DNA from: Ignavibacteriota bacterium
GTDB lineage: Bacteria > Bacteroidota > Ignavibacteria > Palsa-1295
Direction of reading: 5' to 3'
Assembly: GCA_963794025.1 (NCBI GenBank)
Contig: CAWCCK010000018.1
Coordinates: 2,706 to 66,705 of the forward strand
DNA: 64,000 nt
The position numbers and the translations under genes are program-made. Shown piece by piece: positions 27,450 through 63,001 of this stretch. The first letter of the stretch is position 1. Every line of letters begins with the position of its first letter. Below the pieces are notes generated by a model. That model was not told the DNA's origin. It worked only from the letters and a program-made list of their open reading frames with translations, and did not search any database.

Positions 27450-27538
27450 CCGTAGGGACGTGCTGCGCACGTCCGTTTGGCGGAAAACGAAATTCTTCAG
27501 CTTCGAACAAGCGGGACGTGCGCAGCACGTCCCTACGG
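27450..27538. mobile_element. Palindromic element with 25-nt perfect terminal inverted repeats CCGTAGGGACGTGCTGCGCACGTCC / GGACGTGCGCAGCACGTCCCTACGG in the 5' leader region of the RM gene
   Basis: Exact reverse-complement arms separated by 39 nt. It shares the CCGTAGGG..CCCTACGG termini with the elements at 61259-61446 and 62941-63001. Confidence 0.65.
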
Positions 27539-27559
27539 TTCTACACGTTGCGTACTACC

Positions 27560-27589
27560 TCTCTGCGAAAATGTCGTATTTTTGTCCCA
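27560..27589 (+). promoter_or_regulatory. Candidate -7 element TATTTTTG 5 nt upstream of the RM start codon (possible leaderless transcript)
   Basis: gtcgTATTTTTGtcccaATG. Confidence 0.25.
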
Positions 27590-30500
27590 ATGGCTAACAA
27601 GTTCGTCCAATCCTACCTTCGGGAGATCGAGCAGATTCACGCGCGCGGCAACGCGACCGAGCATAGCTATCGCGGCGCGTTGCAACGGCTGACCGATGCG
27701 CTGAACCCAAAAGTTCGGGCCGTCAATGAGCCAAAACGCGTAAATGTTGGCGCGCCCGATTATATCATTATGGAGGGCGAAACCCCGCTCGGATATATCG
27801 AAGCAAAGGATATTGGCGTTGATTTGGATGGCAAGGATACGCAGAAACAGCTTGCACGCTATGTCGATGGATTGGGGAATGTCATCCTTACCGATTATCT
27901 GGAATTCAGATGGTATGTCAACGATTCAAAAAACTACCGCCATGCCGTAACACTTGCAAAACCAAGCGGTAAAAAACTTATTTCGGAAGATAACGACGAG
28001 AAATTCATCGCGCTCTTTGCACAATTCTTAGGTTCCCCGGCAAGTACCGTCAAGTCCGCGAAAGAGCTTGCACTCCGGATGGCGAAGCTCGCCGATATTA
28101 TTCGCGACATCATTCTGAACGCGATTAACGAGGGTGAAAGCGTGCAGTTGAACGACACCATGAAATCGTTCCGCGAAGTGCTGCTGCACGACATGACCGA
28201 CCATCAGTTCGCCGATATGTACGCGCAAACTATTTCTTATGGCATGTTCGCCGCGCGCGTCAATCACCAACCGCCATCGAACCCCCGCCTTTCCAAGGCG
28301 GGGGCAGGGGGTGGTTTTAATCGCATGACCGCCGGATACGATCTCCCCAAGACGAATCCGTTCCTGCGCCAGCTTTTCAATACCATCGGAGGGCCAGAGC
28401 TGGATGAGCGTGTAACATGGGCTGTTGATGAACTCGCCAATCTGCTGCGACACACCGCGATGGAGGACATCCTACGCGATTTCGGAACCCGAACCCGACA
28501 GGAAGACCCCGTTGTACACTTTTATGAAACATTCCTTGCCGCCTACGATCCCAAACTTCGCGAGTCACGCGGTGTCTATTACACGCCGGAACCCGTCGTG
28601 AGTTATATCGTCCGTTCGGTCGATCATATTCTCAAAACCGATTTCGGATTGGAAAAGGGTTTGGCAGATTCGTCGAAGATTAAAACCCAACCACCCCCCA
28701 ACCCCCGCCTTAGAAAGGCGGGGGAGCCGATTCCCCCGCCTTTTCAAGGCGGGGGCCAGGGGGTGGTTGCCCCCCAGGATCTACACAAAGTCCTCATCCT
28801 CGATCCCGCTTGCGGGACGGGAACCTTCCTGCACGGCGTCATCGACCAAATTCACGATAACTTCAAAGGCAACGAAGGCGCGTGGTCCAGCTACGTCTCC
28901 GAGCATCTCCTGCCGCGCATTTTCGGATTTGAATTGCTCATGGCCCCGTATGCCGTCGCGCATCTCAAGCTTGGGCTGCAGCTAAAGGAATACGGGTACG
29001 ATTTCAAAAGCGACGAACGCCTCCGCGTCTATCTCACCAATACGCTCGAAGAAGCATTCACCGCCGACGAGCGCCTGCCCTTCTCCAATTACCTCGCTAA
29101 AGAAGCCAACGCCGCCAACGAAGTAAAGCGCGATCTCCCAATTATGGTCGTGCTCGGGAACCCGCCGTATTCGGGACACTCAGCAAATGCAAGCTGGAAA
29201 GAAGTTATCAATCCCAAAACCGGCAAAGCAAAAAAAGAAGCGACTTGGATTGGGGAGTTGATCCAGGATTATTATTATGTCGATGGCGCGCCACTCGGAG
29301 AAAAGAATCCCAAATGGCTGCAAGACGATTATGTGAAATTTATCCGCTTCGCTCAATGGCGTATCGAGCAGACCGGCTATGGCGTTCTCGCGTTCATATC
29401 GAATCACGGCTATCTCGATAATCCGACATTCCGCGGAATGCGCCAAAGCCTGATGAAAACCTTCGACGATATTTATGTTCTTGATCTTCATGGGAATAGC
29501 AAGCGAAAAGAGCGATCACCTGATGGCAGCAAAGATGAGAATGTATTCGATATTCAACAAGGAGTGGCAATTGGAATTTTTGTAAAGAAGAAAATTGAAA
29601 AGAAAAAAGATGCCGTTGTGAAGCATGGGCAACTTCATGGAATAAGGGAATCAAAATACAACACGCTTTGGAATAAACAAATTGAGAATTCAAAATGGAA
29701 GAAGCTACAACCTGATTCTCCTTTTTACCTTTTTATTCCACAAGATAAAGGAATTTGGGAAGAATTCGAAAAGGCACAGTCTGTAATAAGTTTCATGAGT
29801 GTTAATGGATGGGGCGTTGCCACAAGAAAGGATTATATTCTTGTTGACTTCAATAAAGTCGATTTGAAAAACAAGTTCGACAAAATTTTGTCTGGTGGAA
29901 TTGATGAAGCCTATGAATTAGGAATCCGAGACAATCCTCATTGGTCATTTAGGAATGTTAAAATCAAGTTGGGCAAATCTGTTGGCGATAGGATTTTAAA
30001 TTACACTTTTAGACCATTCGACAATCGCTTTGTTTTCTATGAGCCTTTAATGATTGAGCGAGGCGATCATAGGTGGCCAATTGCAAGACATTTGGTTCAA
30101 AAAGAGAAGAATTATAGCTTGTTAGTAAGCCGAACTGGGTCTGCGGCCGGATCACCAGTTTGGGATGTATTATTTGTTGCGAATAATTTAAGTGACCTAA
30201 ATTTATTTAGACGAGGAGGCGCATTCATCTTTCCTCTCTATCTCTACCCTGACGCCACCAAAAAAGACCTCTTCTCCGAAGCATCCACACCCGATCCGAC
30301 GCGCCGGGAACCGAATCTTTCGCCCGCCTTCATCGCGGAGTTTTCGGAACGCCTCCACCTAACATTCATTCCGGATGGTAAAGGGAACCTAAAAAAGACG
30401 TTCGGCCCCGAAGATGTTTTTCATTATATGTATGCTGTTTTTCACAGCCCCGCGTACCGCGCGCGTTATGCAGAATTTTTGAAGATCGATTTTCCGCGTT

Positions 30501-30898
30501 TGCCGTTAACGAGTAATCTTGCATTATTCCGCCAACTCTGCAAACTTGGCGAGCAGCTTGTGCAATTGCATTTGATGGAGAAATTCGGCAAGCCGCTCAG
30601 CGGCTTTCGCGGGAAAGGCAGCGATATGGTGGAGTATGTGAAGTATTCCGAGGAAACAGGCCACGTACAGATCAACGAAGATCAATACTTCGAAGGCGTT
30701 CCGGATGCGGTATGGAATTTCCATATCGGCGGCTATCAGGTCGCGCAAAAATGGCTGAAAGACCGCAAGAACCGCACGCTCCAATTCGATGACATCGAGC
30801 ATTATCATCATATCATCTCCGCGCTTTCAGAAACCATGCGATTGATGAAGGAAATAGACGAGGTGATCAGCGAGGCCGGCGGTTTTCCATTAAAATAA
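27590..30898 (+). CDS. Fused type IIG restriction-modification enzyme: N-terminal HsdR_N-like PD-(D/E)xK nuclease, gamma-class N6-adenine methyltransferase and C-terminal target-recognition region. Carries two in-frame palindromic-element insertions.
   Basis: N-terminal PD..EAK (GAPDYIIMEG...GYIEAKDIG...QLARYV). MTase motif I LDPACGTGTFL and motif IV VLGNPPYSG. The start is set at MANKFVQ (27590) because the upstream part of the track ORF is low-complexity and contains a hairpin. The insertions are PSNPRLSKAGAGGGFN and QPPPNPRLRKAGEPIPPPFQGGGQGVV. Confidence 0.6.
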   Translation: MANKFVQSYLREIEQIHARGNATEHSYRGALQRLTDALNPKVRAVNEPKRVNVGAPDYIIMEGETPLGYIEAKDIGVDLDGKDTQKQLARYVDGLGNVILTDYLEFRWYVNDSKNYRHAVTLAKPSGKKLISEDNDEKFIALFAQFLGSPASTVKSAKELALRMAKLADIIRDIILNAINEGESVQLNDTMKSFREVLLHDMTDHQFADMYAQTISYGMFAARVNHQPPSNPRLSKAGAGGGFNRMTAGYDLPKTNPFLRQLFNTIGGPELDERVTWAVDELANLLRHTAMEDILRDFGTRTRQEDPVVHFYETFLAAYDPKLRESRGVYYTPEPVVSYIVRSVDHILKTDFGLEKGLADSSKIKTQPPPNPRLRKAGEPIPPPFQGGGQGVVAPQDLHKVLILDPACGTGTFLHGVIDQIHDNFKGNEGAWSSYVSEHLLPRIFGFELLMAPYAVAHLKLGLQLKEYGYDFKSDERLRVYLTNTLEEAFTADERLPFSNYLAKEANAANEVKRDLPIMVVLGNPPYSGHSANASWKEVINPKTGKAKKEATWIGELIQDYYYVDGAPLGEKNPKWLQDDYVKFIRFAQWRIEQTGYGVLAFISNHGYLDNPTFRGMRQSLMKTFDDIYVLDLHGNSKRKERSPDGSKDENVFDIQQGVAIGIFVKKKIEKKKDAVVKHGQLHGIRESKYNTLWNKQIENSKWKKLQPDSPFYLFIPQDKGIWEEFEKAQSVISFMSVNGWGVATRKDYILVDFNKVDLKNKFDKILSGGIDEAYELGIRDNPHWSFRNVKIKLGKSVGDRILNYTFRPFDNRFVFYEPLMIERGDHRWPIARHLVQKEKNYSLLVSRTGSAAGSPVWDVLFVANNLSDLNLFRRGGAFIFPLYLYPDATKKDLFSEASTPDPTRREPNLSPAFIAEFSERLHLTFIPDGKGNLKKTFGPEDVFHYMYAVFHSPAYRARYAEFLKIDFPRLPLTSNLALFRQLCKLGEQLVQLHLMEKFGKPLSGFRGKGSDMVEYVKYSEETGHVQINEDQYFEGVPDAVWNFHIGGYQVAQKWLKDRKNRTLQFDDIEHYHHIISALSETMRLMKEIDEVISEAGGFPLK
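28270..28318 (+). mobile_element. In-frame GC-rich palindromic element, copy 1 in the RM gene
   Basis: gaaCCCCCGCCtttccaaGGCGGGGGcaGGGGGTGGTTtt. The stem is a perfect 8 bp. Confidence 0.65.
28689..28767 (+). mobile_element. In-frame GC-rich palindromic element, tandem double copy with AACCACC/GGTGGTT outer inverted termini
   Basis: AACCACCCCCCaaCCCCCGCCttagaaaGGCGGGGGagccgattCCCCCGCCttttcaaGGCGGGGGccaGGGGGTGGTT. Confidence 0.7.
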
Positions 30899-30938
30899 AT
30901 AGCGAATCCCTCCGCCACATTCCCCGTATAGCGTTGCA

Positions 30939-32276
30939 ATGACGCTTCAGCCCATTGCCATCAAGCGGTCAATCTTTGGCTTGCTATCGGGGACATTCCG
31001 GTCGCTCCGGCATCGTAACTACCGGCTGTTTTTTATCGGCCAGACGATCTCGCTGATCGGGACGTGGCTGCAAAACACCGCGCTTGCGTGGCTTGTGTGG
31101 TCGCTTACGAAGGACTCGATGATCCTCGGCATCATGAGCTTTCTCGGTTCGATCCCGGTGCTGTTTCTTTCTATTTTTGCGGGAACGTTTGCGGATGAAA
31201 ATCCGAAACGGCGCATTCTCGTTATCACGCAAGCGGCTGCCGGAGTGCAAGCCATTCTTCTCGCCATCGCAATCTGGACGCACTCTGCGACGGTCATCGT
31301 GATCGGCGCGGCAAATTTATTATTGGGAATCGTTACCGCGTTCGATCTGCCGACGCGCCAAGCCTTCGTCGTAGAAATGGCGAGCAAAGAGGATGTGACG
31401 AACGCCGTTGCGCTGAACTCTGCCGTTTTCAATTCTGCGCGTTTAATCGGCCCGGCGTTCGCGGGATATATTATCTACGCACTTTCGATGCAGATGTGTT
31501 TTTTCTTGAATGGGGTCTCATATATCGCCGTCATTATCGGTTTGCTGATGATGCGTTTCGACCGTCCGCAGGTTCCCATTCATTCGCGCGAAGGCTCGCG
31601 CATCGAAGCAATGAAGGAGGGAATTACGTATCTCTATTCTGTCCCGCAGCTTCGTTCCCTCATGTTCCTCGTGCTCGGTATGACGCTGTTTGGCTGGAGC
31701 TACACGGTTAATCTTCCGGTCGTTGCTGGGAATCTATTGCGCGGCGGCGCATCGACCTATAGCGCGCTGCTCTCGGCGAACGGCGCGGGCGCGCTGCTTG
31801 CGGCGCTTTCGCAAGCTGCGCTGGCTGGTCGGCTCGATGCGCGTAAAATGCTGTTCGTCGGTTTGGGAGTTTTTATCGTGGCGTTATTTCTGCTTTCGTT
31901 CGCGCATACGCTTGCGGTTGCCGTGGCGCTGCTCATCTTTATCGGATGGGGCCTCATCACGTTTTTCATTACCGCCAACACCACGCTCCAACGCCGCGCG
32001 CCGGACGAACTTCGCGGGCGCGTGATGAGCATTTACTCGTTCGCGTTCGCGGGATTGTTCCCGTTCGGGAGCTTATTTGCGGGATGGATCGCCTCGCAAT
32101 TCGGCGTAGCAGACGCCTTCCGGCTGAATGCTGCAATGTTGTTATGCTTTGCAGTTCCCGCGTTTCTCTTCATACGAAAGCTGCCGCGCCTCTCTGCTAC
32201 GCGCGCGGTAGCCGTTCAGGAAGTGCTCGAGGGCGAAGAAGAAGTGTTCGAGGCGGAACAGATTTCGCGCGGATAG
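30939..32276 (+). CDS. MFS transporter (EntS/YbdA-like efflux family)
   Basis: 445 aa with 12 predicted TM helices and MFS N-terminal motifs. Confidence 0.65.
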   Translation: MTLQPIAIKRSIFGLLSGTFRSLRHRNYRLFFIGQTISLIGTWLQNTALAWLVWSLTKDSMILGIMSFLGSIPVLFLSIFAGTFADENPKRRILVITQAAAGVQAILLAIAIWTHSATVIVIGAANLLLGIVTAFDLPTRQAFVVEMASKEDVTNAVALNSAVFNSARLIGPAFAGYIIYALSMQMCFFLNGVSYIAVIIGLLMMRFDRPQVPIHSREGSRIEAMKEGITYLYSVPQLRSLMFLVLGMTLFGWSYTVNLPVVAGNLLRGGASTYSALLSANGAGALLAALSQAALAGRLDARKMLFVGLGVFIVALFLLSFAHTLAVAVALLIFIGWGLITFFITANTTLQRRAPDELRGRVMSIYSFAFAGLFPFGSLFAGWIASQFGVADAFRLNAAMLLCFAVPAFLFIRKLPRLSATRAVAVQEVLEGEEEVFEAEQISRG

Positions 32277-32313
32277 GCTTTACAAGAAATATGCTATCGC
32301 CAGTCCATCCGGC

Positions 32314-32730
32314 ATGATCGCTTTCCTGTTCTTAGTTGGGAAGGAATTCAGCTTACCCGAAGGTGTGAGCACGGCTATTATTGGCCTTTTTTTTGGATTG
32401 ATCGGCGGCCTTTTTTATTATCAGCACTATTACAAGCCCTATTTTTGGGGCTTCTCGCTGGTTGGCGGGTTGCTGTTGACGGTCATGTCGCACTCGTTCT
32501 TTCAACGGTGGAACACAACGGACGATGCAAAAGCAATTTGGTTAACCATTGCCACGTTTGGAATTCCGTTCATCCTGACGCTCGCGCTTAATCATGGCCT
32601 GTATTATATCAAGAAGAGCAAACGCAAAAAACGGACGAAACTCCGCGAGCCGAATCGTTTTTTCGATACGACCATTCATCCCGGCGATACAGGACGTTCG
32701 ACAGAAGCAGGGAAGGATCTTACAGGATGA
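32314..32730 (+). CDS. Hypothetical membrane protein
   Basis: 138 aa with four hydrophobic helices and a basic C-terminal tail. Confidence 0.35.
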   Translation: MIAFLFLVGKEFSLPEGVSTAIIGLFFGLIGGLFYYQHYYKPYFWGFSLVGGLLLTVMSHSFFQRWNTTDDAKAIWLTIATFGIPFILTLALNHGLYYIKKSKRKKRTKLREPNRFFDTTIHPGDTGRSTEAGKDLTG

Positions 32731-32999
32731 AATACTTCATTCCTATTTTCATTGCCGTGCTGTGCGTTGGCTGCTCGGTGGCACCTCCGGTGCAGCAGGA
32801 GTATATGATCGTTGCGCCGCACGCGATCGTTTTTTCCACCTCTACACCGGACACGATGACGGTTTCTATCACACATTCCTGTACCTGCCCGTTCTCGTGG
32901 AACGCAACGGTTTCTCCGGCAGCTCCTGGCTTCGTTTCCCGGCCTCGCCGATGGGCGATAAATCGGACATTCCTATTTCTGATCGATCCGCGCTCTTAA
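32727..32999 (+). CDS. Hypothetical small lipoprotein
   Basis: Signal peptide plus Cys lipobox (AVLCVGCS). Start overlaps the preceding ORF (ATGA). Confidence 0.35.
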   Translation: MKYFIPIFIAVLCVGCSVAPPVQQEYMIVAPHAIVFSTSTPDTMTVSITHSCTCPFSWNATVSPAAPGFVSRPRRWAINRTFLFLIDPRS

Positions 33000-33729
33000 C
33001 AGCAGATACCAACCGGGCAACGATTGTGATCGTCTCGAATAGTTACGGCGAGGATTCGATCATCGTTACGGCGATAAAATAAATCCCTTAGTAAGCATTC
33101 CCACACGCGATGCTCGGCTTCCTGCATGAGCGTAGTTCTTCTGCGCGTTTTTCCGAGGTGATTCTGGCGGACACGGCCGAATGTAATCGGTTCTCCAATC
33201 CGGATCTCTGCCGAATATCCCCAGTTCGGGAGCCATTTCTGACGTGGTAGAATTTGATACGAGCCGATAAGCGCAATAGGTACAACAGGTACGCTGGCTT
33301 CCCGCGCTAAATGAAATGCGCCACGTTTGAACGGTTGCATGGTTCCCGAATGGCGTTCTTGTTCCTTCCGGAAAAAAAAGCACGGATGCGCCACGCTCGT
33401 ATGCGTTCGATAGCCTTCCCGATCGTGCGCTGCGCCTTTGCGGGATTGGTGCGATCGAGCACGAGAAATGGCCTGACAAGCAGCGCCCATCCCCAGATCG
33501 GAATGCGTGTTAGGGAACTTCTGAGCGTCAAACGGAGATTATCCGGGACATATCCAAGCAAAATCGGGATGTCCATGTAGCTCGAATGATTTGCGGCATA
33601 CACATAGTTTTGGTCGCGCTGAATATGCTCTGCGCCTTTAATAGTTACACGTATTCCGAAAAAAAAGAGACTGCATTTGCTCCAGATCTTTGCTACCCAA
33701 AGATAGCGTTTTTCCGCTCCGATCCACAA
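32996..33729 (-). pseudogene. plsC: 1-acyl-sn-glycerol-3-phosphate acyltransferase (PlsC family) split over three reading frames
   Basis: Frame a (33307-33729) carries the HxxxxD block (AANHSSYMD). Frame b (33066-33479) carries FFPEGTRTPFG. Frame c (32996-33490) carries PFKRGAFHLA...VPVVPIALIG. The two +1 shifts are ~70 nt apart and flank a T8 run. Confidence 0.55.
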
Positions 33730-34442
33730 GCGCGGCCACCACGGAGACGATAGAAAAAATAATGGTCGTGATTAGAAATAACACCACGCCCAAGAATCGA
33801 GAGTACGATCATTGGAGCATTTCCAATCCCTTCAAGTTCATCGACTTCAGCAATGCGGCGAACTTCATTGATATTATCCGCTCCATCTTCGGTGATCGAA
33901 ATGACATACCGGTTTCCGGGAAAAAGCGTGATCTCTCCATGCGGCTCTTTTTTCTCCATCGATTGCACTGCGCGGTAACCGGCGATGGTGGTCGTTTCCG
34001 TGCGTTCATCGTTGTTATCGTCAAGATAAATTCCCTTAAATTTCTGCCACGGATCGTAAAGGTAAGGAACGTACGCAAAATCATCGATCTGAATCTTTAG
34101 TTTTTTCGTGCCATTCACAAAATTCAACGCGACGCGCGAGCGATTAAAGTTCTCGCGGATCTGAATTTCTTTAAGCGTATCACCCTGCGGCATCCAGCCG
34201 GGCAGCGTGGGAAGGAATAGAGCCAGCCGATCTGGCTCGATGGCTTTTGCCATCGGCGGGAGATTGGAGGTATCGGCTTTCGCTTTTGCAGTATCCTGCG
34301 CGGGCTTCGGCAGCGTGTCAGCCGATGGATGCAGCGAATCCAGCGAAGGTGGAAGCTGCTCGTTGTGGCGGCATCCATCCCATGAAACACAGGAGATTCC
34401 TGCGATCAATAAAAAAAATCCGAAAAACCAAATGCGGTTCAT
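33693..34442 (-). CDS. Hypothetical lipoprotein
   Basis: Signal peptide with lipobox (LLIAGISC). 249 aa, no recognisable domain. Confidence 0.4.
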   Translation of the reverse strand: MNRIWFFGFFLLIAGISCVSWDGCRHNEQLPPSLDSLHPSADTLPKPAQDTAKAKADTSNLPPMAKAIEPDRLALFLPTLPGWMPQGDTLKEIQIRENFNRSRVALNFVNGTKKLKIQIDDFAYVPYLYDPWQKFKGIYLDDNNDERTETTTIAGYRAVQSMEKKEPHGEITLFPGNRYVISITEDGADNINEVRRIAEVDELEGIGNAPMIVLSILGRGVISNHDHYFFYRLRGGRACGSERKNAIFG

Positions 34443-35170: not shown

Positions 35171-35389
35171 TTGAGCAAGCGCAGCTATGAGTGAAAGAGA
35201 AATTCCGAGTATCAGAATTCCCCCAAAAGCAATTGATCCCCGAACAGATAAAAGGTCCAGCTTTTTCTACTCTGCTTTTTCCCGTTCAGGTGAAGGATTT
35301 GCGAAATATGTTTTTGTCCCGAAGGAGTATCTTTCGTTTTAAACACGGTATAGAAATCGCGGCGCGTATCAGGGAAATCATGAAAGAGT

Positions 35390-35689
35390 TTATTTATTCT
35401 CGTGAGGATTCCCGAAACATAAGCACGCTCGGAGGAGTCGCTTGGCGTTCACAGCGCGTAACCATTGCTTGGATGTATCTTTCCACGCAATGAGCGGCGC
35501 GGCGCTATCAATGTTATTCGTTTCGGCGAATCGCTTCAGATCCATGATATGCTGGAATACGACATCCGAAAGCGAATCGCGCGTTACCTGCGATAGCATG
35601 ACAATATCCGTGCGCGGCTTGTTGCCAAGCCCGCCCTGCGCGAACGCGAGGGAGGGGAAAAGAAGGAGTGCAAAAAGAATTTTCTTCAT
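35390..35689 (-). CDS. Hypothetical small secreted protein
   Basis: Signal peptide only. Confidence 0.3.
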   Translation of the reverse strand: MKKILFALLLFPSLAFAQGGLGNKPRTDIVMLSQVTRDSLSDVVFQHIMDLKRFAETNNIDSAAPLIAWKDTSKQWLRAVNAKRLLRACLCFGNPHENK

Positions 35690-37449: not shown

Positions 37450-38607
37450 ATGAATTTCCAATACACCGAAGACCACATCGCCATTCGCGACGCCGCGCGA
37501 GAGTTTGCTGAGAATGAAATCGCGCCTTCCGCCGTCGAGCGCGATAAAACGGGCGAGTTCCCAACGGAGATCGTCCAAAAATTGGGCGAGCTTGGGTTCT
37601 TAGGAATGATGGTCGCGCCGGAATGGGGCGGCGCAGGACTCGACACCGTCAGCTACGTGCTTGCCATCGAAGAAATCGCGAAAGTCGATGCGAGCGTGGC
37701 TGTCATCATGTCGGTGAATAATTCCCTTGTCTGCTGGGTGATCCAAACCTTCGGCACGGATGAACAAAAGGAACGGTTCCTGCACCCGCTTGCAACCGGC
37801 CAAAAGCTCGGCGCGTATTGCCTCAGCGAACCCGGCGTTGGCTCCGATGCTACGAAGCAAGCCACGACGGCCACGCTGCAAACCGATGGAAGCTACCTCA
37901 TCAACGGCGCGAAAAATTGGATCACCAATGGCACGACGGCAGATCACTATGTCATTTTCGCGCAGACCGACGCTACAAAAGGACATCGCGGCATCACCTG
38001 TTTCGTGATCGATAAAGGAATGCCCGGTTTCGAAACGGGACTGAAAGAAGATAAGCTCGGCATTCGGTCGAGCGATACATGTTCGCTCGGTTTTACGGAG
38101 CTAAAAGTTACGACCGATCGGATTATCGGCGATGTCGGGCAGGGATTTAAGATCGCAATGGAGACGCTGAATGGCGGTCGCATCGGGATTGCTGCACAGG
38201 CGCTCGGCATAGCGAGCGGCGCAATGGATAAAGCCATTCGTTATTCGTTCGAACGCCATGCGTTCGGCAAGCCGATCAATCAATTACAAGCAATTCAATT
38301 CAAGCTGGCCGATATGCAGGTGAAGGTCGAGGCTGCGCGAATGCTCATTCTTCGTGCTGCCCGAAAAAAAGATGTAGGAGAAAGTTTTATCAAAGAAGCT
38401 GCGATGGCGAAGCTCTATGCCTCCACGATCGCGAACGAAGTAGCGACGCAAGCCATTCAGGTGCATGGCGGCTACGGTTATGTGCGCGAGTATTTAGTCG
38501 AGCGCAGTTTGCGCGACGCGAAGATCACCGAGATCTACGAAGGCACGAGCGAAATTCAGCATATTGTGATCGCCAGGCAGCTTTTGAAAGAATACCAAAA
38601 TAATTAA
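37450..38607 (+). CDS. Acyl-CoA dehydrogenase (short/medium-chain type)
   Basis: ACAD N-terminal, middle and C-terminal domains. The catalytic Glu lies in the YEGTSEIQ motif. Confidence 0.8.
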
Positions 38608-38700
38608 GAATTAGAAATTAAGAATTAAGAATGAAGGGAGCAACGAAAAAAGCTGTCACGCTATCTTTATTCTTCATTCTTAATTCTTCCTTCTTAACTA
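38598..38700. repeat. AATTAAGAA-type tandem-unit inverted repeat overlapping the 5' end of the next ORF
   Basis: aattaagaattagaaattaagaattaagaatgaagg ... ctttattcttcattcttaattcttccttcttaac. Confidence 0.55.
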
Positions 38701-39185
38701 ATAAATGTGAAGCGCAGACCGGAGGGAAATACGATTTCTACCGATACCTTCAGCAATACGCTGTCGAGATCGATCCGATTGGAGATATTCTTGGCCGGGT
38801 GAGCGGGCAATTCGAAGAACGGCTCGATCCCAATTTCTCTCGGGTGTATGACATTGTTTATCAACGAGCGGTAGAGGATAAACACACGACCGGTTGGTAT
38901 CCGGAATCAGCGATCACCGTTGGCGCGATGGAACGCATTTTTCTTACCGATAATGCAGCGATTCTCGGTCAATATATTGGCATCGGAGTGGGGGCTGGTG
39001 TCATTCACAAGTCCATTGCCGTGCGCGTGACTGCTGAGATCGGATATAAGATCGCGTTCGGCGGAGGAACCGGGCATTTCTTCATCGAACCGAAAATTCT
39101 TATGGATTCCTACATCATCACAAACGCGGTCGGACAGCGTATTTTACCCTACGTTGCACTGCCGTTTGGGTACTCCTGGTGGTAG
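38631..39185 (+). CDS. Small outer-membrane beta-barrel protein (C-terminal ..FGYSWW)
   Basis: Signal peptide, alternating amphipathic strands and an aromatic C-terminus typical of OMP barrels. Confidence 0.45.
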   Translation: MKGATKKAVTLSLFFILNSSFLTNKCEAQTGGKYDFYRYLQQYAVEIDPIGDILGRVSGQFEERLDPNFSRVYDIVYQRAVEDKHTTGWYPESAITVGAMERIFLTDNAAILGQYIGIGVGAGVIHKSIAVRVTAEIGYKIAFGGGTGHFFIEPKILMDSYIITNAVGQRILPYVALPFGYSWW

Positions 39186-41353: not shown

Positions 41354-41414
41354 TGTAGCGCAAACTTTAGTTTGCGATTCTGGGATGGGGTCGCAAACTA
41401 AAGTTTGCGCTACA
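41354..41414. repeat. Two inverted copies of TGTAGCGCAAACTTTAGTTTGCGA forming a 24-bp-arm hairpin between lemA and the TPM gene
   Basis: tgtagcgcaaactttagtttgcga-ttctgggatggggt-cgcaaactaaagtttgcgctaca. The same 24-mer occurs at 110-133. Confidence 0.65.
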
Positions 41415-45832: not shown

Positions 45833-45893
45833 GGTGGTGTGGCACATGCTTTAGCTTGCGTCAGGTGACACAAGCTAAAGCATGTGCCACACC
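45833..45893 (-). terminator. Long hairpin terminator immediately after the GNAT gene
   Basis: ggtggtgtggcacatgctttagcttg-cgtcaggtgaca-caagctaaagcatgtgccacaccac. On the minus transcript it is followed by ccggauuuuuaag. Confidence 0.65.
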
Positions 45894-45895
45894 AC

Positions 45896-49239: not shown

Positions 49240-49324
49240 ATTCGCGGGAATGACAAGGATTAGAATCATTGCGCGAAGCGCAAAAAAGGATACGTTCCTG
49301 TCATTCCCGCGAATGCGGGAATCC
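49240..49324. mobile_element. Second copy of the 'cgcgggaatgaca ... tgtcattcccgcgaa(t)gcgggaatc' REP/MITE element
   Basis: attcgcgggaatgacaaggattagaatcattgcgcgaagcgcaaaaaaggatacgttcctgtcattcccgcgaatgcgggaatcc. Confidence 0.65.
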
Positions 49325-49405
49325 AGTTTTCAGATGTTCCTTAGCATTACTATAAACTATTGTGTTCATTAAATGCTTAATTAATCCTCCGTAATTTTTG
49401 AAGAC

Positions 49406-54225: not shown

Positions 54226-54227
54226 CG

Positions 54228-54815: not shown

Positions 54816-54936
54816 ATAGTTAGTACAAAGATATGGAATTTTTAGCTCTCATCCACAATTTCTAAGAATCGCATTCATGTTTGTAAAAATTTCCGGTTAT
54901 TCTTTTCACCGATTGTGTGTTGAGGTGCCGCACCAC

Positions 54937-56802: not shown

Positions 56803-57490
56803 TGTTGCAGCGATATTGGTTGCCGGAGGGTCGTCCGTTCGCTTCGGAACTCGGAAGCAATTCGAGCTTTTGGGTGATGTGCCGATATATCAATATGTGG
56901 CGAGAACTTTTTCGTGCGTTGAATCCATCCATACAATAGTTCTCGTTGGTCCACCGTCCGATATAGCAGAAATGGAAGCCGGTTTGCAAAGCATGAATTT
57001 GCCGATGCAATGGAAAGTTGTCGCTGGCGGCGAAACGCGACAGGAATCGGTGGCGAATGGACTGCGCGCAATATCCGGGAATGAAATCAACATTGCGATC
57101 GTGCATGATGCAGCCCGCGCATTAGTGGAGGACGCGCTTATTCGTTCCGTGATCGAAGCGATCCGAGAGCATGGGGCGGCGGTGGCCTGTATCCCCGTTG
57201 TTGATACGATAAAGCGTGCAGTAGAAAACGAAATTATAGAAACGATCCCGCGCGAAAACCTGTGGAGCGCGCAAACCCCGCAAGGCGCGAGGGTAGAACT
57301 CCTCCGCGCCGCGCACGACAACGCCCGCAAAGCCAATGTTCAGGCCACCGATGAATCGCAGCTTTTGGAACGCACCGGCATTCACCCACGTATAGTAAAA
57401 GGCAGCGAGCTGAATTTCAAGATCACCTATCCGAGCGATCTGGAACGAGCGCGACTGACCATTCAAAAGCATGGGTTTCTTAGAGAATGA
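56795..57490 (+). CDS. ispD: 2-C-methyl-D-erythritol 4-phosphate cytidylyltransferase
   Basis: AILVAGGSSVRFG...KQF motif and IspD fold. The start is set at MRDVAAIL. Confidence 0.8.
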   Translation: MRDVAAILVAGGSSVRFGTRKQFELLGDVPIYQYVARTFSCVESIHTIVLVGPPSDIAEMEAGLQSMNLPMQWKVVAGGETRQESVANGLRAISGNEINIAIVHDAARALVEDALIRSVIEAIREHGAAVACIPVVDTIKRAVENEIIETIPRENLWSAQTPQGARVELLRAAHDNARKANVQATDESQLLERTGIHPRIVKGSELNFKITYPSDLERARLTIQKHGFLRE

Positions 57491-57606
57491 ACATTCTACA
57501 TCTTTCACAACGTTTTCCATTACGTTTGTGTTAAACGACACCTGCACCAAAGCAAAATTGCGAAAATAGGCTGTTTTTGCCAAAAACGGAGGAATTTCAG
57601 TAAGGA

Positions 57607-58272
57607 ATGATCAATTTAACGTTCGTCATTATCGCGAGCTATCTTATCGGCTCGATACCATTCGGTATTATTATTTCGAAAAAATTTCGCGGATTCGACA
57701 TCCGCACGAAAGGATCGGGGAACATCGGTTCCACGAACGCTTTTCGAACGCTGGGCTGGAAACTCGGCCTGACCGTTCAGTTGCTCGATCTCGCGAAGGG
57801 CTTCGGCGTCGTTCTGCTTGCCACGTTCCTTTATAATGGACTTCCATTCCATAATGCAACGCCATTTCAGGATGTCACCGTTTTCCGATTGATCGCAGGT
57901 TGCTCGGCGGTGCTTGGGCATGTATTTACGATCTTCGCAGGATTTCGTGGCGGCAAAGGTATCAGCACTGCTGCCGGTATGATGATCGGCATTGCGCCGG
58001 TAGAGGTTGCCGTTGCGGTAGGGATTTTTCTTTTGGTGGTACTCTTCAGCGGTTACATTTCGCTGGGATCGATCATCGCGGCCATCACGCTTCCCACGAC
58101 GATGTTCCTTCGAGAGAATGCGTTCGGCGTTCAGATCATCGGCTATAATACGCTGATCGTTTTTGTGATCGGTCTTTCTGCGTTCCTGATCTATACACAT
58201 CGTTCGAATATCGGTCGGTTGCTTGCGAACCGTGAACATCGGTTCGATAAGCTCAGGATATTTCGAAGCTAA
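57607..58272 (+). CDS. plsY: Glycerol-3-phosphate acyltransferase PlsY
   Basis: GSIPFG...GSGNIGSTNAFR...GGKG signature. Confidence 0.85.
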   Translation: MINLTFVIIASYLIGSIPFGIIISKKFRGFDIRTKGSGNIGSTNAFRTLGWKLGLTVQLLDLAKGFGVVLLATFLYNGLPFHNATPFQDVTVFRLIAGCSAVLGHVFTIFAGFRGGKGISTAAGMMIGIAPVEVAVAVGIFLLVVLFSGYISLGSIIAAITLPTTMFLRENAFGVQIIGYNTLIVFVIGLSAFLIYTHRSNIGRLLANREHRFDKLRIFRS

Positions 58273-58314
58273 ATTTTCCCATCTCATTTCGATGAGATTT
58301 AATGGTGCAGCGCA

Positions 58315-59313
58315 ATGAAGACCGCAGTAATTGGCGCGGGCGGTTGGGGCACAACGCTTGCCCGTGTGCTTCATGAGCGAGGGCATGATGTTACCTTGTG
58401 GGCACGCCGTGAGGCCTTCGCAGAACAAATCCGAAATGCACGAGAGAACGCGGTGTATCTTCCAGGGATCGAAATCTCGCCGCTCATCAAGATCACGCAC
58501 GATGCTTCTGCGCTCGAAGGGAACGATCTGTACGTCTTTGCGCTGCCAAGCCAGGCTACGCGGGAAGTAATTAGCGAACTTGCTCCTCACATCTCCCACG
58601 GCAACGCGGTTTACGTCAGCGCCTCGAAAGGTATCGAACGAAAAACGCTGTTGCGCGTAACGGAAGTAATTTCCGAATCGCTTTCGGTGGAACCATCCCG
58701 AACGGTTGCGCTGTCCGGACCGAGCCATGCGGAAGAAGTTGCTCGTCAGGTTCCCACCGCCATCGTTGCCGCAAGTGTGGAACACGATGTAGCCCGTGAA
58801 GTGCAGTCTGCTTTTTTCCTTCCCTATTTCCGAGTCTATTCCAGTTCCGATGTCGTGGGTGTGGAACTCGCTGCTGCGTTGAAGAATGTGATCGCGATCT
58901 GCGCCGGTATTACCGATGGCGCCGGTTTCGGCGATAACACCAAAGCGGCCCTCATGACGCGCGGCCTTGCCGAAATGCGCCGATTGGGCATCGCGCTCGG
59001 CGCCGAAGAGCATACCTTTAGCGGTCTTGCGGGACTTGGCGATCTTGTCGTGACGTGTTCCAGCAAACATTCCCGCAACCGTTTCGTCGGCGAACAAATT
59101 GGGCGCGGCAAAAAGCTTTCCGAAATTCTGCATGGCATGAAATCCATCGCCGAAGGCGTTGCAACGGCGGAATCCGCGAAGAATCTTGCCGAGCTTCATA
59201 AAATTGAAATGCCGATCGTGCAGGAAACCTACAAAATTCTTTTCGAACATAAAAATCCCCGCGAGGCCACGAACGATCTCATGAGCCGCGATATGAAGGC
59301 GGAGCGCTGGTAA
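58315..59313 (+). CDS. gpsA: NAD(P)H-dependent glycerol-3-phosphate dehydrogenase
   Basis: N-terminal GAGGWGT Rossmann motif and the GpsA catalytic region (NVIAICAGI.DG...N...A). Confidence 0.85.
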   Translation: MKTAVIGAGGWGTTLARVLHERGHDVTLWARREAFAEQIRNARENAVYLPGIEISPLIKITHDASALEGNDLYVFALPSQATREVISELAPHISHGNAVYVSASKGIERKTLLRVTEVISESLSVEPSRTVALSGPSHAEEVARQVPTAIVAASVEHDVAREVQSAFFLPYFRVYSSSDVVGVELAAALKNVIAICAGITDGAGFGDNTKAALMTRGLAEMRRLGIALGAEEHTFSGLAGLGDLVVTCSSKHSRNRFVGEQIGRGKKLSEILHGMKSIAEGVATAESAKNLAELHKIEMPIVQETYKILFEHKNPREATNDLMSRDMKAERW

Positions 59314-59410
59314 ACCACGATTTTAGGGATTTAGAGGATTAAAAGGAGTGCGAAATAATAGTGGTGAACGAATCGAGCTTCTGTTGCTTTTAGTATCCTG
59401 AGGTACCATT

Positions 59411-59965
59411 ATGTTATTAACCACCGAAAAGCGATATACGAAAGAGGATTTCGAGCGGTTGCCCGAAGGTGCGCCGTATCAATTGATTGCAGGAGAATTA
59501 GTTATGAGTCCGAGTCCCACATTTTTTCACCAAGAGATCGTTGCTAATATTCTGGAAAAGCTCCGGCCTTTTGTTCGAAAGAACGGTCTCGGCCAGCTTG
59601 CGCTTTCTCCATTAGATGTTCATCTTACAGAGGAGGATATTTATCAGCCAGACCTTATCTTCATTCGGAAGGAAAATCTGACGCGTATCGAACCGCATGA
59701 TCGCATTCACTTCGTTCCAGATCTGGCGATCGAAGTGCTTTCGCCATCGACGGCCTATTACGATTATTCGCATAAGAAAAAAGTATATGCTGAACGCGGG
59801 GTCAAGGAATATTGGATCGTCGATCCGCAGGATAAAACAATCGAGATCATGGTAAACGATAACGGAATGTTCCGAACAGAAGCATTGCTTGGAGAATCCG
59901 GCACAGTTGAATCCACCATGTTTCCCGGGTTCAGGATGAATGCCGAAGAAGTTTTCGCGCTCTGA
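59411..59965 (+). CDS. Uma2-family (DUF820) putative endonuclease
   Basis: PDL...IEVLSPST...EYWIVDP are PD-(D/E)xK motifs characteristic of Uma2. Confidence 0.7.
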   Translation: MLLTTEKRYTKEDFERLPEGAPYQLIAGELVMSPSPTFFHQEIVANILEKLRPFVRKNGLGQLALSPLDVHLTEEDIYQPDLIFIRKENLTRIEPHDRIHFVPDLAIEVLSPSTAYYDYSHKKKVYAERGVKEYWIVDPQDKTIEIMVNDNGMFRTEALLGESGTVESTMFPGFRMNAEEVFAL

Positions 59966-59978
59966 TAATTTTTTATAC

Positions 59979-60962
59979 ATGCTTCGAATAGGAATTGCCG
60001 GAATCGGTCATTTAGGAAAAATTCACGCTAAGCTTTGGAAAGAAGTCGAAGGCGTTGCCGTCACGGGAATTTATGATGCAAATTCCGACGCCGCGAACGC
60101 CATTTCGAACGACTTAGGCATCGAAAGCTTCGAGAACTATTCTGCATTCTTGCAACAGGTCGATGGGCTTTCCATCGTAACGTCCACGCCTTCGCATTAT
60201 GAAATCGCAAAGCAAGCTATCGTTGCAGGTAAGCATGTCCTGATCGAAAAACCGATCACTACCACCACCGAGCAAGCCGAAGAACTGATAGCGCTCGCAA
60301 AAAAGCATAACGTAAAAATTCAAGTCGGGCATATCGAGCGATTCAATCCCGCGCTGCTGGCTGCGGAACCATATCTCGACGATCCCCGCTTTTTCGAATC
60401 GCACCGCATGGCGCAGTTCCAGCCGCGCGGCAGCGATGTCGCCGTCGTGCTCGACCTCATGATTCATGACATTGATGTCATTCTCTCGCTCGTGAAATCG
60501 CCGGTGAAATCGATAGATGCTTCGGGAGTTGCCGTCGTATCTGAGGAACTCGACATTGCTAACGCCCGCATCAAATTCGAGAATGGCGCCGTTGCCAACG
60601 TCACCGCCAGCCGCATTTCCCAAACGCCGATGCGCAAGCTCCGTATTTTTGCCAAGGAAGCGTATCTTTCGCTCGATTTCGGAACCAAATCCGCCGATAT
60701 TTTCCGTCTTATCTCCGGCGATGAAAAAGCTCATCACGGAGGTCTTACCATGAAACTTGGCCAGATCGAAAAAGGGAATATCCCGCGCACGATCGTTTAT
60801 GAAAAGCCCGACGTCCGCGATCTGAACCCGCTCAAATTCGAACTTGAAATGTTCCGCGATGCCATTCTGAAGGATACCACCCCCCTCGTCTCCGGAGAAG
60901 ATGGACTGAACGCCCTCCGCGTAGCCGAGATGATCCTGAAAGCCATCGAAGAGGGGATGTAA
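59979..60962 (+). CDS. Gfo/Idh/MocA family oxidoreductase
   Basis: N-terminal Rossmann GIAGIGHLGKIH and an EKP motif (HVLIEKP). Confidence 0.75.
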   Translation: MLRIGIAGIGHLGKIHAKLWKEVEGVAVTGIYDANSDAANAISNDLGIESFENYSAFLQQVDGLSIVTSTPSHYEIAKQAIVAGKHVLIEKPITTTTEQAEELIALAKKHNVKIQVGHIERFNPALLAAEPYLDDPRFFESHRMAQFQPRGSDVAVVLDLMIHDIDVILSLVKSPVKSIDASGVAVVSEELDIANARIKFENGAVANVTASRISQTPMRKLRIFAKEAYLSLDFGTKSADIFRLISGDEKAHHGGLTMKLGQIEKGNIPRTIVYEKPDVRDLNPLKFELEMFRDAILKDTTPLVSGEDGLNALRVAEMILKAIEEGM

Positions 60963-61258
60963 GGTCGGTTCATCCTCGAAATTCGCTCACTTTCGCCAGT
61001 TGTCTTTTAGCAATAGGTGCCAATTACGCGCGCACGCATTTGTTTTTCATTAACTCATGCAGTTATCCATCAGTTTTTCATTAATTTCACGATGAAAACT
61101 ATGTTCCCGATTTTCAAAGAACCACCGAGCATCTACTCTTAATTCATACTTCTTAACGCTTCATTGATATAGGTGCCCATCAAAGTAGTACCAATATAAG
61201 CAATTAAAAGGGCCATGTCAAGGGGTTGCGAAAGATTTATGGAAAATATTTTTCAGTG

Positions 61259-61446
61259 CCGTAGGCACGGCATCTTTGTAGCCCAGGGCGTCAGCCCTGG
61301 GTTTGCGATTTTATTAGAGCCAGGAGTCCCGGAGGGACGGTATATTATTTGGGACGGGGAATATGCCGTCCCGATGGGACTCCGGAGGTGTTGCGCTCAT
61401 CTACCCCGCGCTTACGCACGGGGCTACAAAGATGCCGTCCCTACGG
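61259..61446. mobile_element. ~190-nt highly structured palindromic element with 26-bp terminal inverted repeats (CCGTAGGCACGGCATCTTTGTAGCCC / GGGCTACAAAGATGCCGTCCCTACGG) and nested inner hairpins
   Basis: The outer arms have one mismatch. Inner hairpins are cagggc-gtca-gccctg, ggagtccc...gggactcc and gggacgg-ggaatatg-ccgtccc. The termini match the family at 27450 and 62941. Confidence 0.65.
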
Positions 61447-61474
61447 GACTAAAAATTCCCGGTTCGGCCGCCCC

Positions 61475-62797
61475 TCATTCCTTCACAAATTTCGCCCGCC
61501 TCTTCCCATCGCTTACGAAATACACGCCGGATGGAAGCGAGGAAATATCAATCGTGTTGCCGGTTTGCTTTACTTCATAACTGCGGCCAAGCGGATCGAG
61601 AATAGAAATTTTTTCTTCACTCGATGTAATTTGAATTTTGACAGTTGTGGGATTAGGGAAAATGGAGAAATTCTGCTGCGAAATATCTGGAGCATTAACG
61701 CTCGAAGGAACCGGCTCTAAATAGGCAACCAAGTTCGATCCAAGAGAGTCGTCGTCAGGCGCGATAATCGCTATGACACGCCCTGATTGCGTAACTGCAA
61801 CCGACTGAATCCAATAATAAGACTCACCATCGTCAAGTGGCACCGTGTCTGCTTGCCACGTTTCGCCGTGGTTTGCGCTCATCAATACTCGACCAGCAGA
61901 ATCAACCCCAGCTATAACAATAGGATTTTGATCGAACGGCGTGATTACCTGCGGATTCATATAAATAGATGGCAGTGGAAGTTCCGACCAATCATTCCCC
62001 AAGTCCGAGGAAACCCATAACATGACGGAAGAATCAGTGTGTGTGGAATCCCACTGAGTGCCAACGATTTCCAATGAGTCGCCATTGCCAAAAACTAAAA
62101 ATGAGGGCGAGGCAATGGAACTATTAATAGAATCGCTCAACTGCATAAGCGATGTATCGATCGTTCTCCAATCATCGAATGAGGTATAGATCGAATTCGG
62201 AGGTCCAAAGGCTCGGAATGTGCCGCTGCCATAAGAATGGCAGGTTCCCGTAACATCGTTATGCATAATTTCTTGATCCCAATGCTTTCCAGTGTCCAAC
62301 GTAGTGAGAAAGAAACCGAATCCTTCGCTGACCATGCCTTCGCCAGCACTCGAAAAATCAACATTGTAAAATGCATAACCGGAATTAAGGCTGGTATCTT
62401 GCGTAAATGTTCTCCAGCCATCGAAGGTGCGGATAATCGCTCCGCCACTCATATCGACCGCGATCGCATCGAGCGAATCTATTTGCTGAACCTTATCAAA
62501 GTAAAGATGGGTCTTCCCCTGATTGTTATAACTCCACTGTGGCACGGAGTCCACCGAAATCCACGTTTGCCCTCCATCAGAGCTATGTAAGAGAATACAC
62601 GAATCGTATGAATTTTTGCTATAAGTGACACCTACAGCCGTACAATTCTCACCGTGACAGGACACATTCGAAAATCCGAAAAAAGATGTATCAATTCTGT
62701 CAGGGATGACGATGTGCCAGCGAAATTGTGCATTCGCGCCCGAAACGAATGTGAGGCATGAGAACAGCGCGATAAGGCCGATCTTCGATTTAAGCAT
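61475..62797 (-). CDS. BNR/Asp-box repeat (sialidase / Ycf48-like beta-propeller) protein with T9SS C-terminal sorting domain
   Basis: Signal peptide, three S-x-D-x-G-x-T/H-W Asp-boxes (SDGGQTW, TLDTGKHW, SANHGETW) and the T9SS CTD (ISSLPSGVYFV). Confidence 0.65.
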   Translation of the reverse strand: MLKSKIGLIALFSCLTFVSGANAQFRWHIVIPDRIDTSFFGFSNVSCHGENCTAVGVTYSKNSYDSCILLHSSDGGQTWISVDSVPQWSYNNQGKTHLYFDKVQQIDSLDAIAVDMSGGAIIRTFDGWRTFTQDTSLNSGYAFYNVDFSSAGEGMVSEGFGFFLTTLDTGKHWDQEIMHNDVTGTCHSYGSGTFRAFGPPNSIYTSFDDWRTIDTSLMQLSDSINSSIASPSFLVFGNGDSLEIVGTQWDSTHTDSSVMLWVSSDLGNDWSELPLPSIYMNPQVITPFDQNPIVIAGVDSAGRVLMSANHGETWQADTVPLDDGESYYWIQSVAVTQSGRVIAIIAPDDDSLGSNLVAYLEPVPSSVNAPDISQQNFSIFPNPTTVKIQITSSEEKISILDPLGRSYEVKQTGNTIDISSLPSGVYFVSDGKRRAKFVKE

Positions 62798-62940
62798 GGA
62801 TTTGCAGGTTATTAAAGTAAAAGATAGAGGGGATAAATAAGGTACTTAAACCCTCCATTGTTTAAAACGCACTGGGTCGCTCGGGTTACAAAAAAATCTT
62901 TAACAAAATGCGTGTCAAAGAGACAACTGCGCTAATTTGA

Positions 62941-63001
62941 TCGTAGGGGCTAATGGCATTAGCCCATTTTGTCCAAAGGGCTAATGCCATTAGCCCCTAC
63001 G
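62941..63001. mobile_element. Perfect 25-bp-arm palindrome TCGTAGGGGCTAATGGCATTAGCCC-N11-GGGCTAATGCCATTAGCCCCTACGA
   Basis: Read directly. It shares the CGTAGGG/CCCTACG termini with the family above. Confidence 0.65.

Follow-up and report, generated by a model that had tools for sequence, protein, structure and literature searches.

Three palindromes in an Ignavibacteriota contig as likely GTAG-tagged REP doublets, and the recurrent junction of REPs with a promoter-like cassette

Introduction

The stretch of DNA analysed here (hereafter the window) comprises 64,000 nucleotides of contig CAWCCK010000018.1 from the Ignavibacteriota assembly GCA_963794025.1, and contains three palindromic elements, here called E1, E2 and E3, which a first-pass annotation made from the sequence alone had described as a family resembling miniature inverted-repeat transposable elements (MITEs). 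All three are probably doublets of GTAG-tagged repetitive extragenic palindromes (REPs), similar to REPINs (REP doublets forming hairpins), that fall into three classes and would serve as substrates of a REP-associated tyrosine transposase (RAYT) whose gene lies in another part of the genome. Elements of this kind are already known; what is unexpected is the fixed junction that REPs form with a promoter-like cassette.

Anatomy of the three palindromes

E1 (27450–27538) is made up of two perfect 25-nt arms (CCGTAGGGACGTGCTGCGCACGTCC) lying 39 nt apart, E3 (62940–63003) of two perfect 26-nt arms around a 12-nt centre, and E2 of two 53-nt arms (61250–61302 and 61403–61455) with 85% complementarity, which enclose a nested palindrome at 61323–61383. 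Folded as single-stranded DNA, the elements reach −39 (E1), −64.3 (E2) and −32 (E3) kcal/mol, with z-scores of −9.9, −10.0 and −12.5 against shuffled sequences. The three palindromes of the first-pass annotation are therefore present and fold far better than shuffles, and the nested hairpins that it placed in E2, which it had delimited as a 188-nt element, were also found.

The 25–26-bp terminal inverted repeats (TIRs) that had been assigned to the elements are in fact pairs of smaller modules. The whole window was scanned for short perfect hairpins (stem of at least 7 bp, loop of 3–6 nt), and every arm of E1, E2 and E3 turned out to be a self-contained hairpin with GTAG directly before the stem, each element consisting of two such GTAG-plus-hairpin units in inverted orientation with the tags facing outward. 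When folded in isolation, the arms form the hairpin and leave GTAG unpaired (the E1 arm alone gives an 8-bp hairpin of −9.3 kcal/mol), and across all classes in the window stems are 7–9 bp and loops 3–4 nt long. The scan returned 46 perfect hairpins, and GTAG occupies 7 of their 92 feet, against about 0.36 expected, and is by far the commonest tetranucleotide in that position. The stems of E1 (class A), E3 (class B) and E2 (class D) are mutually unrelated and represent three REP classes, and the interiors of the elements are likewise unrelated to one another. The units are as follows.

27450–27474, plus strand: left REP unit of E1, class A, CC-GTAG-GGACGTGC-tgc-GCACGTCC (hairpin scan, folding)
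27475–27513, no strand: spacer of E1, 39 nt, of the 'short' spacer family common to loci L017 and L035 (comparison with loci)
27514–27538, minus strand: right REP unit of E1, class A, inverted; tags outward (head-to-head dimer)
61255–61301, minus strand: left unit of E2, class D, small hairpin GTGCC-GTA-GGCAC, linker, then GTAG-CCCAGGGC-gtca-GCCCTGGG (Rfam Acido-Lenti-1, 50.1 bits)
61323–61383, no strand: nested inner palindrome of E2, GGAGTCCCGGAGGGACGG...CCGTCCCGATGGGACTCC (palindrome search, folding)
61404–61450, plus strand: right unit of E2, class D, inverted partner (Rfam Acido-Lenti-1, 37.3 bits)
62941–62965, plus strand: left REP unit of E3, class B, TC-GTAG-GGGCTAAT-ggc-ATTAGCCC (hairpin scan, folding)
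62978–63002, minus strand: right REP unit of E3, class B, inverted; head-to-head dimer with a 12-nt spacer

A terminal 8–9-mer shared by all three elements had been taken as the mark of one family, which holds in part: both termini of E1 and the right terminus of E2 carry CCGTAGGGAC, but the left end of E2 reads CCGTAGGCAC and E3 carries TCGTAGGGGC, so that the 7-mer CGTAGGG is the sole motif common to five of the six termini (nine matches in the window against 3.1 expected, a number reached by 1 of 100 shuffles). What the termini have in common is the GTAG tag generic to the REP superfamily and, in E2, the loop of an accessory hairpin, rather than the signature of a family.

In a classical MITE family the elements would be deletion derivatives of one insertion sequence (IS) of the DDE type, mobilised in trans through shared TIRs, and such a family would display what is seen here, namely long inverted repeats without mismatch that are alike in their outermost bases and differ inside. 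However, the flanks of E1, E2 and E3 contain no direct repeats that could represent a target-site duplication, the arms share seven bases only and are otherwise unrelated in sequence, and each arm is itself a hairpin. The remaining CGTAGGG sites (21668, 23512, 39147 and 42582) are not associated with hairpins and bracket no IS-sized segment, and a full-length IS with the same ends, for which the first-pass annotation had proposed to look, is absent from the window.

Copy number and distribution

Class A was searched for with the pattern CGTAGGGACGTGCNNNGCACGTCC in the GTDB species-representative genomes, where at least 99 stretches matched, with many matches per genome in metagenome-assembled genomes (MAGs) of Kapaibacteria/Ignavibacteriota and further ones in rumen Clostridia MAGs, Anaerosolibacter, four Moraxella species and a Leptospiraceae MAG. 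An identical REP core, GTAGGGACGTGC-NNN-GCACGTCC, was seen in Kapaibacteria, Clostridia, Moraxella, Anaerosolibacter and the Leptospiraceae MAG (L009, L024, L049, L073 and other retrieved loci, all designated by L and a number).

In 750 kb of retrieved loci, mostly from Kapaibacteria/Ignavibacteriota MAGs with others from Clostridia, Moraxella and a Leptospiraceae MAG, taking as a unit any match with the GTAG that the pattern requires and no more than two stem mismatches, 154 class A units were counted, arranged as 38 GTAG-outside pairs, 8 tandem pairs and 64 singletons, with no GTAG-inside pair; one MAG holds at least 48 units across 26 tiles. The hairpin bases are conserved in at least 144 of 151 units (GTAG being imposed by the search pattern), and no sequence conservation extends beyond the unit borders among the units in these loci. 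The abundance of singletons is a further point against a MITE family. Spacers of two families are found in more than one genome, the first 39 nt long (the E1 type, in which L017 matches E1 with 89–90% identity across the entire doublet) and the second about 62 nt, yet the spacers of GTAG-outside pairs range from 18 to 64 nt and the singletons have no partner at all. The two conserved families suggest that some doublets may have been copied as whole units.

The class B unit of E3 was found in 37 metagenome stretches, several of them with GTAG-outside dimers, and class C, described below, recurs in the window and in several Kapaibacteria loci.

A RAYT transposase in related genomes

In Kapaibacterium SMAG_U14065 (L021), a RAYT open reading frame (ORF) at 6468–7166 is accompanied by class A REPs at 6529–6551 (minus strand) and 7181–7203 (plus strand), and in a Clostridia MAG (L015) a RAYT gene at 5507–6013 is flanked by class A REPs, the geometry (hairpin-CTAC, gene, GTAG-hairpin) being identical across the two phyla. 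Both proteins contain an HUH motif and a C-terminal tyrosine motif, and an alignment shows MPNH[VL]H and [YE]YI..NP. They match Pfam Y1_Tnp with 30.8 and 25.2 bits (gathering score 23), and their best NCBIfam match is 'REP-associated tyrosine transposase' (NF047646; E values of 6e-17 and 1e-17). The L021 and L015 proteins are only 31% identical, though linked to one REP sequence. A truncated RAYT remnant adjoins class A REPs in palsa_1295; the retrieved tiles of palsa_1295 hold this one remnant and those of SMAG_U14065 one intact copy.

For class B, a close variant with the stem GGGCAAAT begins about 26 nt 5' of 180-aa RAYT genes in eight metagenome contigs. The 180-aa RAYT of L114 (4997–5536) carries a REP unit of its own class within the coding sequence, in the linker after the HUH motif, where it encodes the peptide ...VKGKCNLPLQ...; the same holds for L113, L115, L119, L120, L122, L123 and L130.

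The working unit would be a 22–25-nt module, in which an unpaired GTAG is followed by a stem of 7–9 bp and a loop of 3–4 nt, rather than a TIR. By analogy with characterised REP/RAYT systems, the hairpin would form on single-stranded DNA, and the RAYT, an HUH/Y1 enzyme of the IS200 superfamily, would recognise hairpin and tag together, cut the strand and rejoin it. Units or doublets would in this way be copied into new intergenic sites without target duplication, and the doublets may later erode through deletions of the palindrome centre and through replacements. A RAYT located elsewhere in the source genome would presumably be what mobilises the copies in the window.

The gene linked to these units in relatives encodes a Y1/HUH RAYT and not a DDE transposase, and a classical MITE family is an extremely improbable explanation. 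The first-pass annotation was right in that the elements are repeated, apparently non-autonomous and tied to a transposase, but they form three REP classes without shared TIRs, and the enzyme, found in relatives only, is one that acts on hairpins instead of on TIRs.

E2 and the Rfam family Acido-Lenti-1

Both arms of E2 match Acido-Lenti-1 (RF01687) above its gathering score of 37 bits, one on each strand, and a partial third module lies inside E2 at 61326–61348 (18.5 bits, model positions 23–45). E1 does not match this family and E3 gave no match in a gathering-score scan of the whole window. Other Rfam matches of E1, to generic long-hairpin (microRNA precursor) families, were below threshold and are meaningless here.

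The outer CCGTAGG of E2 corresponds to the loop and stem of the small 3' hairpin (GUGCC-UAC-GGCAC) in the model. The conserved CUA(C) straight after the first Acido-Lenti-1 hairpin is the complement of the REP tag, some seeds having CUAC at this point, including two from Lentisphaera and one from Koribacter, and others CUAA, CUGU or CUGA. As this complement of the tag is accompanied by the concentration of the 89 family members in few genomes, Acido-Lenti-1 resembles a REP on the other strand, which suggests from the sequences that the family may be a GTAG-tagged REP seen from the opposite strand. Three units in Kapaibacteria loci also score above the gathering score.

The motif was described from Acidobacteria and Lentisphaerae and was rated by its discoverers as probably RNA, with covariation (Weinberg et al. 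2010, PMC2864571). This rating and the scores of the E2 arms would fit small RNA (sRNA) genes, with E2, and perhaps E1 and E3, encoding trans-acting sRNAs of the Acido-Lenti-1 type and the palindromes reflecting RNA structure. However, two matches on opposite strands form an inverted pair, which is the arrangement of a GTAG-outside REP dimer and not of a gene, and both the CUAC of some seeds and the high copy number in few genomes are REP traits. Neither E1 nor E3 matches the family, no promoter or terminator accompanies the units, and covariation in a DNA hairpin recognised by a protein is indistinguishable from that in an RNA. The sRNA explanation is hence decidedly unlikely.

Genomic context and comparison of orthologous sites

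E1 lies between a copy of the promoter-like cassette described below and a gene (27590–30898) for a Type ISP/MmeI-like methyltransferase-specificity protein of a restriction-modification (RM) system, E2 between the convergent Gfo/Idh/MocA gene and the 3' end of the BNR/Por_Secre_tail gene, and E3 between the 5' end of the latter and a DUF4258/MqsA-like toxin-antitoxin pair. At 27577–27584, 13 nt before the RM start codon, lies a −7 box of the Bacteroidota type, TATTTTTG, and the same box precedes six other genes among 50 (about 1.5 expected). Because it sits between E1 and the RM start, E1 is probably upstream of the RM promoter and not within the RM leader.

The site of E1, upstream of the lipoprotein gene 26297–27115, was compared in four relatives. 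In L141 and L143 (protein identity 79–81%), the lipoprotein gene is directly divergent from an MFS_3 gene, and the site between them contains no REP, no cassette and no RM gene; in the window the MFS_3 gene lies beyond the RM gene. L140 (87%) has half a dimer of the long-spacer family at this site, while L138 (86%) has, at about 2690–2716, one degenerate hairpin tagged on both sides, ATAG-GGACATAC-TGC-GCACGTCC-CTAC, which looks like a dimer collapsed through deletion of the palindrome centre. Intact hairpins tagged on both sides were also seen in L121 and L135. In the window, the site is occupied by an intact short-spacer dimer, E1. The neighbour on the far side of the REP site varies (an RM gene, a Por_Secre_tail gene or a GerE regulator), and the site therefore marks a break in synteny and has undergone turnover among close relatives.

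None of the four relatives has the RM gene at this locus and, as the lipoprotein and MFS_3 genes are adjacent in L141 and L143, the gene appears by comparison as an insertion adjoining the REP site. Together with the intervening −7 box, this absence makes it unlikely that E1 is a regulatory structure in the RM leader, as had been proposed. The only near-identical public contig, from Logan ERR11630394 (L001; 97.7% identity to window 24996–27249), stops inside the cassette and short of E1, as expected when an assembly breaks at a repeat, and exact-protein look-ups with the RM, type IX secretion system (T9SS), oxidoreductase and antitoxin proteins yielded no further contigs. L054, the closest relative over the oxidoreductase gene, was rejected as an orthologous E2 site on account of its different downstream neighbour.

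The positions of E2, between convergent genes, and of E3, downstream of a toxin-antitoxin pair, are ones where hairpins can stabilise or terminate transcripts, and the palindromes might thus be independent host regulatory or terminator structures, alike by chance or through one DNA-binding regulator. Two plus-strand terminator-like sites occur, one in the left arm of E3 and one inside E2 (61326–61338), where 2.3 are expected from shuffles, and there is none at E1. REPs elsewhere in bacteria have such secondary roles (PMC3733652). Against this, the hairpins are not followed by a run of T on the strand that carries the neighbouring genes (minus for 61475–62797 and 63091–63351, which adjoin the two terminator-like sites), one unit exists in hundreds of copies in unrelated contexts and phyla, and the orthologous site is variably occupied among relatives. 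A secondary host role is moreover compatible with REPs and does not replace that identification; E1–E3 may contribute to insulation, termination or mRNA stabilisation. The first-pass annotation had held that a lack of further copies and of polymorphism would favour independent regulatory palindromes; many copies exist (class A alone in the GTDB stretches counted above), relatives show half a dimer, a collapsed hairpin or nothing, and both results favour mobility. Independent regulatory palindromes are accordingly an unlikely explanation.

A promoter-like cassette at the REP junction

The window has two copies of a conserved, multi-copy and apparently non-coding cassette of about 250–400 nt.

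27213–27445, minus strand: cassette copy 1; 5' edge 4 nt from the left end of E1
60988–61245, minus strand: cassette copy 2 (truncated); 5' edge about 10 nt from the left unit of E2

The cassette consists of an A/T-rich stretch, a ATAGGCACCTAT palindrome, a variable run of heptamer repeats and a conserved 3' block ending in GGCACCTATTTCT, and copy 2 contains a sigma-70-like TTGACA-17-TATATT at 61221–61193. The variable middle is made up of the heptamers AATTATG, AATTAAG, AATTACG and AAGTATG. About 30 copies were found in Kapaibacteria loci (for example L030 291–570, L069 3680–3924 and L035 6746–7031), upstream of unrelated genes: lipoprotein, ABC ATPases, rplS, dxr, oxidoreductase and patatin-like protein. 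In L069, about 780 nt separate the cassette copy from a downstream 16S rRNA gene (4707–6199), which has no 23S gene after it within the locus.

Both window copies have a REP dimer within about 10 nt of their 5' edge. Of 16 strong copies in related genomes, at least 13 have a REP ending in ...CTAC no more than 30 nt from the cassette edge, a count biased by the choice of loci for class A REPs, which does not apply to the two window copies. At least four REP classes occur at the edge, always with the CTAC end proximal, the typical junction being CTAC-GGTTnnCGGAT-TTTCAAAAATAATTTCGG, and all three further Acido-Lenti-1 matches in the retrieved loci adjoin cassettes.

Several candidate identities of the cassette were rejected. 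A riboswitch or leader was set aside in view of the unrelated downstream genes, a small-protein gene in view of indels that break the frames between copies, and a structured RNA in view of a weak RNAalifold result on the 3' half (−7 kcal/mol, one compensatory pair). Nothing was found in Rfam. Homology between the cassette promoter and the region upstream of the RAYT gene in L021 was not significant (−0.5 bits, E = 0.06, 401 nt). A further candidate reading takes the cassette motif GTTCTTTGTGAAAAG for a boxA of the rRNA-leader type, which it may resemble; the 16S gene of L069 has no spacer after it that bears a second copy.

It is possible, though we consider it doubtful, that REPs in this lineage, instead of being randomly scattered, are directed to or kept at a single precise junction, namely the cassette's 5' edge. 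The association may reflect insertion at a preferred target, selection that favours an insulating hairpin, or a mobile unit made of both parts. If the REPs are indeed directed there, RAYT-type insertion would have a target defined by sequence or structure, for example DNA that is single-stranded or extruded upstream of a very active promoter; alternatively, REP and cassette together would make up a composite that is functional or mobile, for instance a portable promoter with its own insulation. Targeting, if real, would offer one of the few ways to learn at which sites and by what means RAYTs insert REPs, a process as yet little understood.

Other REP units and palindromes in the window

Two further sites contain units of the same type as E1–E3, both absent from the first-pass annotation.

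111–132, plus strand: lone class C REP unit, GTAGCGCAAACTTTAGTTTGCG (hairpin scan)
41355–41413, no strand: class C head-to-head dimer, GTAG-CGCAAAC-ttta-GTTTGCG, 15-nt spacer and inverted copy, between LemA and TPM-domain genes (hairpin scan)

The window thus holds one doublet each of classes A, B and D and three class C units, and GTAG is on the outside in all four doublets.

Units of another kind, TGTC-ATTCCCGC-GAAW-GCGGGAAT, followed by CCA in two of three units, are present at 5316–5408 (a doublet) and 49300–49325. They fit the published CGTC-1 REP family (Neisseria dRS3 type), and both REP superfamilies therefore coexist in the window.

Palindromes of the type CCCCCGCCTTnnnAAGGCGGGGG(cagggggtggtt) occur in frame inside coding sequence, at 28282–28316 and 28688–28769 in the RM gene and inside long ORFs at 14156–14190 and 2539–2567. 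The second insert of the RM protein corresponds to residues 367–394, between the N6_Mtase and MmeI_Mtase matches. The repeat was also seen in palsa_1295 loci, with four in tandem in L072, and these palindromes resemble intragenic palindromic inserts such as the RPEs of Rickettsia.

Long A/T-rich hairpins of tandem heptamers (AATTATG, AATTAAG, AATTACG, AAGTATG) are located at 8660–8742 and 8832–8928, after tRNA-Arg and tRNA-His, and at 1985–2062, 6818–6867, 24911–25024 and 38599–38704, several of them at the 3' ends of genes or tRNAs. Two large palindromes of other types, GTCATTGCGAGGAGCGA...GCAATCTCA (47-nt arms, 79%) and GTGGTGTGGCACATGCTTTAGCTTG... (30-nt arms, 97%), lie at 24297–24394 and 45834–45895.

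Weighing the interpretation

Some observations count against reading E1–E3 as REP doublets mobilised by a RAYT. Mobility is deduced from the distribution of the copies and not from direct observation. No RAYT is encoded in the 64-kb window, as judged by tblastn and by a hidden Markov model of three sequences run against the six-frame translation, and the cognate enzyme is assumed to reside in the source genome. The retrieved loci come from genomes other than the source (best match 75–80% nucleotide identity), and copy numbers for the source genome refer to the window only. The RAYT proteins of the relatives score 62–64 bits against NF047646, below its equivalog cut-off of 80. The outer GTAG of E2 is the loop of the accessory hairpin, where the Rfam consensus has UUC, so that the tag is not conserved there. 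The spread of dimer spacers, finally, indicates that not all doublets are copies of one REPIN.

The outward-facing doublets, the variable occupancy of the E1 site and the linked RAYT genes nevertheless make REP doublets the likely identity, and in annotation the elements are best labelled as such, not as MITEs, not as RM-leader structures and, for E2, not as sRNA genes. REP/RAYT systems are now placed in Kapaibacteria/Ignavibacteriota, and one REP sequence is common to at least four phyla, with RAYTs that are about 31% identical.

Comparison with known systems

The Correia-type MITEs of Neisseria carry true TIRs around a conserved interior and are flanked by a TA duplication. Like these promoter-bearing MITEs, E1–E3 are small, repeated, intergenic, palindromic and close to promoters, but they possess none of these three features.

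IS200/IS605 transposons, with their gene-less derivatives, use an HUH/Y1 enzyme that recognises subterminal hairpins on single-stranded DNA and leaves no target-site duplication. REP units differ in being much shorter, in lacking separate left and right ends and, in the retrieved loci, in being associated with a RAYT gene that is not multi-copy.

The E2 arms and the three Kapaibacteria units share with Acido-Lenti-1 the two-hairpin layout and the CUA(C) after the first hairpin. Unlike the motif as described, E2 is found in another phylum, as an inverted DNA doublet, and reads on the opposite strand as a GTAG-tagged REP.

In REPINs, two inverted REPs form one long hairpin, in association with a low-copy Y1 transposase gene flanked by high-frequency oligomers (Bertels & Rainey 2011, PMC3116915; Bertels et al. 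2017, PMC5581495). A REPIN replicates as a doublet together with its spacer, which is therefore conserved among copies, and its RAYT is single-copy and vertically inherited. E1–E3 share the single hairpin built from two inverted REPs and, in relatives, the association with a Y1 transposase gene; they differ in that spacer length varies from 18 to 64 nt, singletons are common, and one REP is common to RAYTs that are 31% identical and belong to different phyla.

The closest counterparts are the GTAG-tagged REPs, which comprise 24 families, including the SMAGs of Stenotrophomonas and the REPs of Pseudomonas and Escherichia coli, and are characterised by units of 20–40 bp in many, mostly intergenic copies, the GTAG tag, stems of 6–13 bp, dominant GTAG-outside ('HH') dimers and spacers of 20–100 bp (Di Nocera, De Gregorio & Rocco 2013, PMC3733652). 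Several families may coexist in one genome, some are found in distant taxa, intragenic copies exist, and RAYT genes form 'REPtrons' with them (PMC3733652). A term search of the text of that article gave no match for Kapaibacteria or Ignavibacteriota, and the likeness to its families is one of anatomy, the stems in the window being GGACGTGC, GGGCTAAT, CGCAAAC and CCCAGGGC. The E3 spacer of 12 nt is below the usual range. In all other respects compared, namely the unpaired GTAG, the sizes of stem and loop, the HH dimers, the coexistence of several families, the sharing between distant taxa and, in relatives, the RAYT gene flanked by REPs, the elements of the window resemble the GTAG-tagged REPs.

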